A stretch of 63,398 bases of DNA, filler included, from Malassezia furfur (GCA_052055015.1; 31 parts of 31 records of this genome joined end to end with filler, not necessarily neighbours in it); one strand, 5' to 3'; shown: positions 1 through 63,263, counted from the first letter of the whole stretch. Numbers and translations are program-made. Notes: a model not told the origin generated them from the letters alone.

Positions 1-559
1 CGCGGCCCCCGGTGCCCGGCCGCAGGTCTACGGATGGGCGTGCGGCCTCGGGCGGGCGTGCGACGTCCGGCGGCTTCGCGACGACGGGCGGCGTGGTGTG
101 GAAGAGCGCCTGGCACGCACGCAGCAGCTCGACAAGGTCTGCGCCCTCGGGCTTGCGGCGCCAGTCGTCGAGGTACGCCGGCGATACGCGCCCGCTCACA
201 TCCACGCGCTCGCTGCGCCGGACGAGCATCGACGCGGTGGGCACGACGTACACGATCGGCGGGTCGTCTGCGTACGCGCGCGGGATCCATACGTGCACCG
301 GGATGTAGTAGAGCGTGCCCGCGTACTCGACCGGGAGCGTGCCGTCGAGCACGAGGAGGAGGACGGTGCGGCCGTCGTCGTAGGCTGCGTGAGCGGCGCA
401 CGTACTGTACACGTCGGTGCGCGGGCGGAGCGTCGGGAACGCGTCAAGCACGCGGTCGACGTCGGCGGCGATGCGCTCGCGCGCGGCGTACTGCGTGAGC
501 ACGAGACGTACCGGCTCGAGCACCTGGCGGAGCCAGCGGTGCACCACGCCGCGGTCCAT
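1..559 (-). CDS. VPS23: ESCRT-I subunit Vps23/Stp22/TSG101, UEV domain (5' part, runs off window start); not in the ORF track
   Basis: Manual translation: MDRGVVHRWLRQVLEP|YAARERIAADV...LRPRTDVYT|YDDGRTVLLLVLDGTLPVEYAGTLYYIPVHVWIPRAYADDPPIVYVVPT. Two 21-nt GT-AG introns at 491-511 and 385-405. Confidence 0.9.
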   Translation of the reverse strand, partial: MDRGVVHRWLRQVLEPVRLVLTQYAARERIAADVDRVLDAFPTLRPRTDVYSTCAAHAAYDDGRTVLLLVLDGTLPVEYAGTLYYIPVHVWIPRAYADDPPIVYVVPTASMLVRRSERVDVSGRVSPAYLDDWRRKPEGADLVELLRACQALFHTTPPVVAKPPDVARPPEAARPSVDLRPGTGGR

Positions 560-622
560 TGTGGAGGTGGGGAAGCAGGAGCGCAGGGCGCCAGAGGCTT
601 TGCTACGGAGCGGCTACGCTGG

Positions 623-2031
623 CTACGTCTGCTGCGCACGCGGCGTGCGCCGCTTGCGCCGGCGCAGCGCGTTCACGAGCAGGTCCATCTGCCCGCGCAC
701 GACGCCGCGCTTCTGCCCGCGGCGGTTGATCAGCACCTTGGTATGCCCCGGCGCACTGTCCTTCTCGAAGAACACGACGGAGCCCTCGCGGCCGGCGCGC
801 GCCGAGCGCCCCGCGCGGTGCAGCAGCTCGAGCGCGTTGTCGTTCGCGTGCTGCACCGCGGCGCGCCCGCGCCCCGCGTCAGGCACGAATACGTGCCGCA
901 CACGCGGCCCAAAGTCGAGGCCACGCGACAGCACCGAGGTGGTGAGCAGGATGCGCGGCGCGTCGGGCGGCGGCGCGTCGTCGCGCGTGTACGGGCGGTG
1001 CAGGAAGGGCGCGAGGCGCGCGTCCGTGCGGCTCGCGCGCGCGTCTGCGTCGCCGGTGAGCGCGACGTGGTCGACGTTGCGCGCGCGCAGAAAGGCGCTC
1101 AGCTGCTCGACGCTCGTGCGCCGGTCGCGGAAGATGAGGATCTGGTCGTCGGCGCATGCGGGCGTCGTAAAGATGCGCAGGATCTCTTTGAGCATCGCCA
1201 TGTCCTTCGAGCCGCCCGGGTCGAGGAAGCGCGCGGTGAGGCGCGCCGGCAGCGTGTGTAGGTGGGGCGACGCCAGCGTCGTCATGCGGGGGTAGCGCGT
1301 CGCGAGCAGCGCCGCGAGCGTCTTGGGGATCGTTGCGGTGGCCAGGACGACGTCGGCGTCCGCCGCGGCGTCGAGCGCCGCCGTGGTGTCCGGGCGGAAG
1401 CCGTCGTCGAGCAGCGTGTCGGCCTCGTCGACGACGACCCACGCGGCGTTGCTGAGCGCGAGCGGCGTGCGGTGCGTCGGCGCACACAGCTCGCGCAGGC
1501 GCTTGGGCGTCGTGACGAGCACGTCGGGCGACAGCGGCGCGCCGGTGTGCGGCGGCGCACCGACGTCGTGCGCCTGCGCCGCGTACTGCTGCAGCTTCGC
1601 GTAGGCGTCGGCCGCGCGCGCGTCAAACTGGCGCGTCGACGTGCAGTCGACACGAAGCTTGTGCGTGGCGTGGTGGCTGAGCGCCTTGGCGACCTCGGCG
1701 ATCTGCCGCGCGAGCTCGTGCGTCGGCGCCAGGACGACGGCGCGCGGCAGCAGCCGCGGCGTGTGCTGCGCGGCGTACGCGACGTCTGCATGCTCGCCCG
1801 CGGCGCGTGTGCTATGGAGCGACTGCAGGACGGGCAGCAGGTACGCGAGCGTCTTGCCGCTGCCCGTCTCGGCGGCGAGCAGCGTCGCGCCCGGCGTGCG
1901 GTGCGGCGCGAAGAAGTGCGTGAGCGCCTGGGCCTGCGGCACGGTCGGCCGCGCGCGCGCGCCGAGCACCGCATGGACCTGCGCTAGCAGGCCCTCGGAC
2001 AGTGGCGGCGCGGCGAACGTGCGCGCGTCGG
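623..2031 (-). CDS. MRH4: DEAD-box RNA helicase, mitochondrial Mrh4-like (5' truncated by contig end)
   Basis: AETGSGKT, PTHELA, VVVDEAD, SRGLDF, HRAGRSAR motifs; frame is open from 1969 up to the contig edge. Confidence 0.7.
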
Positions 2032-2131
2032 NNNNNNNNNNNNNNNNNNNNNNNNNNNNNNNNNNNNNNNNNNNNTTAATTAATTAANNNNNNNNNNNNN
2101 NNNNNNNNNNNNNNNNNNNNNNNNNNNNNNN
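2032..2131. other. Artificial contig linker N44-TTAATTAATTAA-N44 (first of 30 identical linkers)
   Basis: Identical 100-nt unit with stops in all six frames recurs every ~2 kb; contig lengths fall monotonically. Confidence 0.99.
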
Positions 2132-2154
2132 GTAGGTGCGCGGCGCTGACGCAG

Positions 2155-61216: not shown

Positions 61217-61515
61217 ATGGATGGGTAGTCCTACGTAGCCCGACATGCTCGCTGGCCTACAACTGGTTCAGGAAGTCGGCGAGGCCGCCGCGCGCAGGCG
61301 CCGGCTGCGGCGTACTCGCCTTTTTCTGCTGCAAAAGGGCGCGCAGGCCCTCTTTGTGGTCGGCGGCGGCGTGGGGCCGTCGCCGTGCCGAGCCCGCGCG
61401 CGCGGCGCCGGCCCANNNNNNNNNNNNNNNNNNNNNNNNNNNNNNNNNNNNNNNNNNNNTTAATTAATTAANNNNNNNNNNNNNNNNNNNNNNNNNNNNN
61501 NNNNNNNNNNNNNNN

Positions 61516-61646
61516 GCAACCAGGACCACTCGTTCATGCTCGGTGTCGAGGCCGTGGACCGTGCGCTGTTCGGTGCGCCCGAAATGACGCTCGAGTCGCC
61601 CGATTTCGTCAACGGCCGGCGCAACACGGAGCGCCGGCTCACGTAG
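61516..61646 (+). CDS. UDP-galactopyranose mutase (UgmA/GlfA), C-terminus; not in the ORF track
   Basis: Manual translation [42 protein letters not shown]. Confidence 0.85.
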
Positions 61647-61749
61647 GCAGCGAGGTAGTTCGGCCGAGTCGTAACCCTAGACGGGCCGCCCGTGCGCACC
61701 GGTGCCGAGGAGCGCGGGGGCTGCCGGAGTGGAGCGCCCTCGTTCCACG

Positions 61750-63263
61750 ATGCCCGAGTCGAAGGAAGCCAACGTAGGTGGCCGTGCTTACCCCGCAGCC
61801 CATCTCGCTGTACAGCCGCGCGAGCAACTGCTTTGAGCCGCCGCACGCGAGCGAGGACGTCCTGCACAAGAAGGCGGAGCACTTCAAGAAGCTCTTCCAT
61901 GTGAGCGACGAGCAGCTGCGCGTCATCACGGACCGCTTCATCGATGTGCTGCGCGAGGGTCTGGAGCACGAGAAGCAGACGGTGGTACGTGGAAGAGCCT
62001 CTGACGCAGCCCATGCTTCCTACGTTCGTGTTCGGCTGGCCGACCGGCAAGGAAAAGGGCGACTACCTCTCGCTCGACCTGGGCGGCACCAACCTGCGTG
62101 TGTGTCTCGTGGAGCTCAAGGGCGAGGGCAAGTTTGAGATCACCCAGTCCAAGTTCCGCCTCACCGAGGAGCAGAAGCAGGAGGACGGCGAGAAGCTGTT
62201 CGACTTCTGCGCCAAGTGCGTCAAGGACTTTGTCGAGAAGCACTACGGCTCGTGTGCGCTGCACGAGCACCTCTCGCTCGGTTTCACGTTCAGCTACCCC
62301 ATCGTCCAGAACGCGATCGACCACGGCGAGCTGATCCGCTGGACCAAGGGCTTCGGCAACCCCAACACCGAGGGCCACGACTGTGCGGCGATGCTGCGCG
62401 AGGCGCTCAAGCGCCACGACGTGCCCGTGCAGCTCAGCTCGATCATCAACGACACGACCGGCACGCTGATTGCGTCCAACTACGTCGAGCCGGACACCAA
62501 GATTGCGTGCATCTTCGGCACGGGGTGCAATGCCGCGTACATGGAGCACATCAGCGAGATCCCCAAGATTGCGCACCTGCACCTGCCCAAGGACGAGGAC
62601 ATGGCGATCAACTGCGAGTACGGTGCGTTTGACTCGTTCGAGCACAAGCACCTGCACGACGTGCGCACCAAGTACGACGAGTACATCGACCTGCACTCGA
62701 ACAAGCCGCACGAGCAGGCGTACGAAAAGATGATCGCCGGGCTGTACCTCGGCGAGATCTTCCGTCTGGTGCTGTGCGACCTGGTGGACGAGGGTGTGCT
62801 CTTCCTGGGCCAGGAGACGTACAAGATCGAGAAGCCGTTCAGCTTCGACACCGCGTTCCTTTCGCTGATCGAGACGGACCCCACCGACGAGCTGCTCACG
62901 GTCATGGGCCTGTTCAAGTTCTTCTTCTCGCTCGAGACCGAGTACAACGAGCGGGTCTTTTTCCGCGAGCTCTCGTGCGCGATCGGCACGCGCTCGGCGC
63001 GCCTGAGCGCGTGCGGCATTGCGGCGATCGTCAAGAAGATGGACTACCTCAACTCGGGCTGCACGGTCGGCTGCGACGGCAGTCTGTACTCCAAGTACCC
63101 CAACTTCCCCGACCGCGTGCACAAGTCGCTCGAGGCCATCCTGGGGCCCAAGGGACGCAACATCAAGACGCGCCAGGCCGAGGACGGCTCGGGCGCCGGC
63201 TCGGCGGTGATTGCGGCCATGACCAAGTCGCGCAAGGAAGAGGGCATTTACAAGAACCTGTAA
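61750..63263 (+). CDS. HXK: Hexokinase
   Basis: LDLGGTNLRV, LGFTFSYP, WTKGF, INDTTGT, AEDGSGAG; 25-nt introns 61774-61798 and 61985-62009. Confidence 0.93.

Follow-up and report, generated by a model that had tools for sequence, protein, structure and literature searches.

Short introns in a spacer-joined stretch of Malassezia DNA

We analysed a stretch of 63,398 bases (hereafter the window) whose protein-coding genes, among them those for VPS23/STP22, AFG2, COX15, RPA1, a hexokinase and EF-1beta, are interrupted by GT-AG introns mostly a few tens of nucleotides (nt) long. The window comprises 32 pieces of about 2 kb in falling length order (2031 down to 1883 bases), one of them broken by an 83-N gap, and N44-TTAATTAATTAA-N44 spacers link the pieces. 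It is thus a set of spacer-joined contigs and not a single locus, so that gene neighbourhoods across spacers are meaningless. The anatomy statistics given below refer to 30 introns, 29 short ones of 21–37 nt and one of 177 nt.

The PP2C gene found its best match, at 99% identity, in a protein model named Malassezia furfur (P0123). Vps23/STP22 matched Malassezia proteins at 83–49% identity, and for AFG2 the identities were 64% to Malassezia sp. CBS 17886 and about 50% to Ustilaginomycotina. The best named protein matches and their lineage place the DNA in Malassezia, and on these identities we conclude that the source is M. furfur or a very near relative. An earlier note on this DNA had guessed a Malassezia-like basidiomycete, which the 99% identity to the M. 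furfur model bears out. A metagenome scan with an AFG2 exon returned 80 loci at 47–56% identity, no nearer than non-Malassezia homologues; they look like general CDC48-family genes and not like Malassezia ones, and did not serve to compare orthologous introns. The GC content of the window ranges from 0.60 to 0.68. The contig at 25103–27056 has a lower GC content (0.60 for 25001–30000) and a codon-phase signal that is weak and patchy compared with the rest of the window.

The earlier note had given coordinates for 24 introns, all of which delimit GT..AG elements on a single strand with the lengths assigned to them, and all 24 carry the proposed motif of a 5′ splice-site hexamer, a spacer, CT(C/G/A)AC and (C/G/A)CAG. 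It had listed six more by length only. For five of these we have candidates, namely 42113–42139 (27 nt), 2553–2582 (30 nt), 34201–34235 (35 nt), 2746–2782 (37 nt) and 33631–33667 (37 nt), whereas two motif scans of the window did not locate the sixth, of 31 nt. The list had also overlooked a 177-nt intron of the EF-1beta gene, 60454–60630 (+). A permissive GT..AG scan, scored by G+C at third codon positions (GC3), gave 1991 pairs, mostly in-frame coding deletions or antisense frames, and was replaced by stricter scans. These yielded the EF-1beta intron as the sole further convincing one, and no other convincing intron longer than 37 nt in the window. The introns are listed here in window order, with GC3 values and profile positions given for the two sides of the junction:

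385..405 (−): 21 nt, VPS23/STP22 (UEV domain), phase 1, no in-frame stop.
491..511 (−): 21 nt, VPS23/STP22, phase 0, no in-frame stop.
2132..2154 (+): 23-nt candidate in a GPN-loop GTPase gene, at the contig's first base; motif only, upstream exon outside the contig.
2190..2215 (+): 26 nt, 5′ splice site GTAAGC, GPN-loop GTPase, phase 2; GC3 0.94/0.88, one phase over the junction.
2553..2582 (+): 30 nt, GPN-loop GTPase, phase 0, no in-frame stop; ATP_bind_1 profile 121 and 125.
2746..2782 (+): 37 nt, GPN-loop GTPase, phase 1; ATP_bind_1 profile 172 and 176, frame change.
13365..13386 (+): 22 nt, D-2-hydroxyacid dehydrogenase gene, phase 1; GC3 0.93/0.97, continuous only once the intron is removed, phase +1 to +2.
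14968..14990 (−): 23 nt, AFG2, phase 0; tblastn segments abut exactly at P0032 residues 782 and 783.
15291..15312 (−): 22 nt, AFG2, phase 0; splits the Walker B motif between ILFF and DELD.
17441..17466 (−): 26 nt, bZIP/Hap4-like gene, phase 0; GC3 0.90/0.90, downstream exon from bZIP_1 profile position 8.
27249..27270 (+): 22 nt, inside an SH3 domain, phase 2; downstream exon from SH3_1 position 6, GC3 0.77/0.92.
31605..31628 (+): 24 nt, inside a RING-H2 finger, phase 2; zf-RING_2 profile 23 and 25, TAA in frame if retained.
31850..31873 (−): 24 nt, RPA1, phase 0, no in-frame stop.
31967..31991 (−): 25 nt, RPA1, phase 0; Rep_fac-A_C profile 90 and 93, GC3 0.95/0.93.
33576..33601 (−): 26 nt, proteasome beta-subunit gene, phase 0; motif, GC3 0.72/0.86.
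33631..33667 (−): 37 nt, phase 1, proteasome beta-subunit gene; upstream exon runs to position 171 of the 189-position Proteasome profile.
34201..34235 (−): 35 nt, proteasome beta-subunit gene, phase 2; downstream exon from Proteasome profile position 2, GC3 0.72/0.88.
40383..40403 (+): 21 nt, PP2C (PTC6-like) gene, phase 0, no in-frame stop.
41497..41519 (+): 23 nt, phase 2, in a Pil1-family (eisosome) gene; contig start 46 nt away, GC3 0.86/0.78.
42113..42139 (+): 27 nt, Pil1-family gene, phase 1, no in-frame stop.
48941..48966 (+): 26 nt, gene with a Sod_Fe_C-like domain, phase 1; GC3 0.87/0.97, phase +0 to +2.
52904..52926 (−): 23 nt, COX15, phase 2; COX15-CtaA profile 62 and 65.
53569..53590 (−): 22-nt candidate, 6 nt from the contig edge; motif only, downstream exon outside the contig.
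53744..53764 (−): 21 nt, gene of no assigned family, phase 2; strict motif, in-frame stop if retained, GC3 0.77/0.85.
58714..58736 (+): 23 nt, YTA7-like AAA ATPase gene, phase 1; GC3 0.87/0.85, phase +1 to +0.
59714..59738 (−): 25 nt, ING-family gene, phase 0; GC3 0.92/0.98, phase change.
59912..59933 (−): 22 nt, ING-family gene, phase 1; GC3 0.95/0.90, ING profile 2–28 stops 3 residues before the exon end.
60454..60630 (+): 177 nt, EF-1beta gene (60374–61216), phase 2; GTACGT ... CTGAC CCCACAG.
61774..61798 (+): 25 nt, branch CTTAC, hexokinase gene, phase 0, preceded by a short first exon; GC3 0.81/0.93.
61985..62009 (+): 25 nt, hexokinase gene, phase 0; Hexokinase_1 profile about 38 and 41, GC3 0.93/0.90.

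Two further elements are unverified and were left out of the anatomy statistics:

39287..39306 (−): 20-nt candidate, GTGCGT..CTAAC..CAG; motif only.
44849..44886 (−): 38-nt candidate; strict motif, no coding context.

The first adjoins, on the upstream side, the start codon of a solute symporter (MSSS...) and lies 10 nt from a contig edge. The second is surrounded by stops in all frames and may be an intron of an untranslated region (UTR).

Reading frames, homologues and the case for splicing

Once the elements are removed, the reading frame is re-established and the genes line up with their homologues; for the 177-nt intron this is seen in its exon translations. Support for the 29 short introns comes from homologue gaps or Pfam profile continuity in 13, from codon phase in another 13, from an in-frame stop in one and from the motif only in two. 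In the GPN-loop GTPase gene, splicing of 2190–2215 would join the P-loop GPPGSGKTTY[C] to an exon that begins at ATP_bind_1 profile position 15, and at 61985–62009 the Hexokinase_1 profile has come to position 35 with three residues of the exon left, and restarts at 41. AAA domains flank 58714–58736 on either side. The proteasome beta-subunit gene has a 424-residue frame over all three junctions when spliced, against 257 residues unspliced, a comparison to be read with the 66% GC of this DNA, in which wrong-frame open reading frames (ORFs) are common. Near the 3′ end of the same gene, a micro-exon of 29 nt (33602–33630, −; ..YRDARSLNR) lies between the 37-nt and the 26-nt intron.

At 15291–15312 tblastn segments abut exactly in three of five AFG2 homologues (674 and 675, 695 and 696, 679 and 680), and at 14968–14990 the segments of homologues other than P0032 abut within a few residues. 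The claim of the earlier note that an AFG2 intron separates ILFF from DELD agrees with both the exon translations and these abutting segments. Across the AFG2 gene (14791–16737, −), the Malassezia sp. CBS 17886 model P0008 aligned as one tblastn segment in one frame over both introns. The two introns sum to 45 nt, so that the frame returns after them; the middle exon may be mis-modelled in the record or bridged by the aligner.

Codon phase gave a third independent line of evidence, beside homologue colinearity and profile continuity. GC3 lies at 0.8–0.97 in coding frames, and for 23 of the 31 candidates tested the high-GC3 phase carried on through the junction once spliced. The sliding-window coding phase shifts exactly at introns whose length is not a multiple of three (non-3n). 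Some flanks limit the test: the upstream flank of 27249–27270 measures just 92 nt, and the upstream exon of 41497–41519 has 14 codons within the contig. Intron lengths modulo 3 are distributed 9/11/10 (n = 30), and six of the nine 3n introns lack an in-frame stop, whereas 31605–31628 and 53744–53764 would introduce one if retained.

The motif itself is strongly enriched. The strict pattern GTACGT N3-25 CTSAC N1-5 AG occurs 19 times in the window, compared with a mean of 0.24 and a largest count of 4 in 100 dinucleotide shuffles, none of which reached 19 (about 80-fold enrichment). The hexamer GTACGT is found 67 times over both strands, and 21 of these occurrences are intron starts. This enrichment bears on the possibility that the frameshifts stem from pseudogene lesions, or from indels introduced by sequencing or by a poor short-contig assembly. 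Contigs of about 2 kb do imply that the assembly is fragmented; random indels, however, would not be 21–37 nt long, would not read GTACGT...CTSAC.CAG and would not always fall on the sense strand. Other Malassezia sequences have inserts at orthologous positions, and independent M. furfur-like protein calls agree with the window at 99–100% identity. We consider an origin in indels or lesions extremely unlikely.

Six elements preserve the frame and contain no stop (385–405, 491–511, 2553–2582, 31850–31873, 40383–40403 and 42113–42139), and these could be short coding insertions that are never spliced. Read-through is open in all six, and the extra residues are present in the public model P0123 as well as in P0124, P0129 and P0233. 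Most homologues, however, lack them to the exact residue. Exactly seven residues (VRRALTQ) at 40383–40403 are absent in 20 of 23 PP2C homologues and present in P0123 and P0124; exactly nine at 42113–42139 are absent in 18 of 19 homologues, the sole one to keep them being P0233, a 100% match to the window. At 385–405 exactly seven residues are absent in five of five annotated Malassezia STP22 proteins and in human TSG101, and an exact seven-residue gap coincides with 491–511 in four of the five Malassezia proteins, the fifth having a larger gap. The RPA1 exon read through 31850–31873 has 61 residues over 53 Rep_fac-A_C profile positions, a surplus of eight. The inserts also carry every part of the splice motif, in the sense orientation.

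The proteins that retain the extra residues are themselves informative. P0124, P0129 and P0233 come, where their sources are listed, only from raw assemblies (lgn, ena), and may be unspliced gene calls. P0129, such a call from a relative at 58% identity, has ten residues (VRRARRTLTQ) at the PP2C site. It differs in length from the window, and all that it shares there is VR...LTQ, the residues that the splice signals GTACGT...CTGACNCAG encode. This suggests that the signals are conserved and the length variable, and implies that another Malassezia lineage has an intron of 30 nt at this position. P0123, which keeps the 21-nt PP2C intron as VRRALTQ, is an unreliable arbiter since it also contains a doubtful predicted intron: near 40957–40982 the model assumes a 26-nt intron that lacks a branch motif, and as a result its last 22 residues match no homologue. 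There, the uninterrupted frame of the window reads ...CVPLAGWG...DLFRDRRK, and seven other Malassezia proteins have a C-terminus of this kind (...CIPLAGWG...DLFRDRRK). Given this and the exact gaps, we regard unspliced coding insertions as very improbable. Frame-keeping, stop-free introns of 21–30 nt are invisible to ORF logic and can pass as coding in public gene models.

Splice signals near the lower size limit

The lengths are 21 nt (four introns), 22 (five), 23 (five), 24 (two), 25 (four), 26 (four), 27, 30, 35, 37 (two) and 177 nt, and the median of 24 nt claimed by the earlier note was reproduced (n = 30). The 5′ splice sites read GTACGT in 21 introns, GTAGGT in five, GTGCGT in two, and GTAAGC and GTATGT in one each; the branch motifs are CTCAC (15), CTGAC (12), CTAAC (2) and CTTAC (1). 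All 30 introns end in CAG. The branch A lies 5 nt from the intron end in 21 introns, 6 nt in two, 7 nt in three, 8 nt in three and 9 nt in one. At least 6 nt always separate the 5′ hexamer from the branch pentamer: among the 29 short introns, 26 have a spacer of 6–11 nt and the remaining three one of 18–21 nt.

In all four 21-nt introns the predicted branch A occupies position 16, as the earlier note had claimed. The intron at 385–405 has adenosines at positions 3, 16 and 20 only, which makes position 16 the only plausible branch A; several 21-nt introns have no internal A other than the branch A. The same note had described the introns as having no pyrimidine tract. Mostly just 3 nt separate the branch-site C from the AG, which leaves that description largely intact, but these bases are mostly C, and C makes up 85 of the 111 bases between branch A and AG. 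Interior intron bases are rich in G and C (204 of 274). A floor at 21 nt, also proposed earlier, fits the pile-up at 21–23 nt (14 of the 29 short introns); it is drawn, however, from just 29 introns, and there is the unconfirmed 20-nt candidate 39287–39306. If that element is a real 5′-UTR intron, the floor drops to 20 nt.

The EF-1beta intron provides an internal comparison. Exon 1 starts with the ATG at 60374, and exon 2 continues with HEASQADV..., matching EF-1beta; the intron, the first of its gene, has a GC content of 0.62. Because this 177-nt intron carries signals identical to those of the short ones, the machinery appears to handle ordinary lengths and not micro-introns alone, and small size would be no mechanistic requirement.

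The general branch consensus is yUnAy, and introns of the minor, U12-dependent type have a (A/G)TATCCTT 5′ motif and a TCCTTAAC branch. None of the 30 introns has (A/G)TATCC as its 5′ hexamer, and we rejected the U12 type. The marks of the U2 type are all present: GT/AG ends in 30 of 30 introns, in the sense orientation of the host gene wherever the coding strand could be determined, a yUnAy-type branch near the AG, with its A 5–9 nt from the intron end, and an extended 5′ splice site which, judged on consensus, should be able to pair with U1 and U6. These marks bear on a further alternative, in which the elements are removed or skipped without a spliceosome, by Ire1/tRNA-ligase-type cleavage or by ribosomal bypass. 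Their size is near that of known unconventional introns, and nothing more specific speaks for it. GT-AG ends, an extended 5′ splice site and a branch at a fixed distance from the AG belong instead to U2-type splicing, the 177-nt intron bears the same signals, and the pattern should need no conserved hairpin to explain it. Removal by such routes seems to us to have a negligible chance of being correct.

Several observations weigh against spliceosomal removal of the elements or limit the case for it. Splicing, branch position and lariat size are all things that we infer from sequence. The GC3 phase test gave no agreement for eight of the 31 candidates, which we attribute to short or missing flanks, to a neighbouring intron within the 180-nt span or to unverified candidates. 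The public M. furfur model P0123 treats the 21 nt at 40383–40403 as coding. Two introns at contig edges (2132–2154 and 53569–53590) each lack one flanking exon. The longest-ORF test of spliced against unspliced sequence carries little information, as DNA of 66% GC opens long wrong frames. Finally, Rfam at gathering thresholds had no matches in the window, which thus contains no small nuclear RNA gene by that search. Against these points stand the homologue gaps, Pfam continuity, codon phase and motif enrichment, which together favour the spliceosomal GT-AG reading put forward in the earlier note. We conclude that the elements are very probably ordinary U2-type GT-AG spliceosomal introns shrunk nearly to the sum of their signals.

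Splicing of such introns might proceed as follows. U1 would pair with GUACGU; SF1 and then U2 would pair with (R)CUSAC, leaving the branch A bulged; the first step would produce a lariat loop as small as 16 nt; and the 3′ splice site would be the first CAG past the branch, usually 5 nt after the branch A. A U2AF65-type pyrimidine tract would find no space, and the acceptor is therefore probably picked at the second step by its nearness to the branch. The earlier note had conjectured a spliceosome near its steric limit, possibly with altered U1, U2, SF3b or U2AF components. The variable base of CTSAC corresponds to the ‘n’ of yUnAy, and no special U2 should therefore be needed. A canonical U1 would be mismatched by the C found at position +4 of the 5′ splice site. 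Small size would most likely represent the end state of genome compaction, with its lower bound set by the space required between 5′ splice site and branch.

A broader proposal, which we advance only tentatively and think rather unlikely as a whole, is that M. furfur routinely splices introns of 21–23 nt with a lariat loop of 16–18 nt and an acceptor 5 nt past the branch A; that co-adapted parts may come along, such as a U1 whose 5′ end is complementary to GUACGU and a U2AF that has lost its tract-dependent function; and that stop-free 3n micro-introns are systematically mis-annotated as coding in public Malassezia proteomes. If this were true, a culturable, transformable fungus would be the most accessible model of minimal-intron splicing.

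Comparison with known short-intron systems

Short introns are already in print for the genus. M. sympodialis is tabulated with 5350 introns of mean length 30 bp, 99% of them supported by RNA-seq (PMC5389616, Table 2), and M. restricta with a mean of 37.2 and a median of 30 bp (PMC9241646, Table 1); the minimum intron length was lowered to 15–20 for M. restricta annotation (PMC6473144), and a review on Malassezia mentions ‘very short introns’ (PMC7426719). These species belong to the same genus and show the same phenomenon as the window, in which 29 of 30 introns (21–37 nt) fall within this population with lengths of a few tens of bases. The window sample, with its median of 24 nt and 14 of 29 short introns at 21–23 nt, is shorter than the published M. 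sympodialis and M. restricta values. It thus represents a further species showing the trait and not the discovery of a new kind of intron. In the Malassezia literature within our search, with subscription journals mostly outside it, we did not find splice-signal architecture, length floor or branch-to-acceptor distance described. What the window adds is a compact account of how splice signals are laid out in fungal introns that approach the lower size limit, with a spacer of at least 6 nt and a branch A typically 5 nt from the intron end.

Ciliates and nucleomorphs provide a first parallel outside fungi. Introns of Paramecium and Nyctotherus are given as ‘around 25 bp’ (PMC5014332), and a 15-nt intron in Stentor and an 18-nt intron in Bigelowiella are both cited in PMC12316389. 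These, too, are whole-genome intron populations near the lower size limit; they are AT-rich, in contrast to the GC-rich introns of the window. In Paramecium, 3n introns are reported to be depleted. No such depletion is visible in the window (9 of 30 are 3n, six of these stop-free), where numbers are small.

The closest likeness in signal layout is to the type B introns of Trichomonas vaginalis (and Giardia), which are described as about 25 nt long (23–25), with an extended 5′ motif, a branch fused to the acceptor and no polypyrimidine tract; their 3′ block in Trichomonas is ACTAAC..ACAG, of 12 nt (PMC12316389). Similar length and a fused branch and acceptor suggest that the two kinds of intron work alike, and acceptor choice by proximity is proposed here as there. 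The Trichomonas/Giardia block is, however, not that of the window, whose introns carry a 9-nt CTSAC.CAG block, CT(C/G)AC(C/G)CAG, with CTAAC in two of 30, and belong to another lineage. Trichomonas has tens of introns, whereas the window has about one per 2 kb. We conclude that the resemblance is convergence and not family membership. A 23-nt Trichomonas intron is called among the shortest known in a 2025 paper. Four of the 30 window introns, at 21 nt, are shorter still, which suggests that few beyond the field are aware of the Malassezia case.

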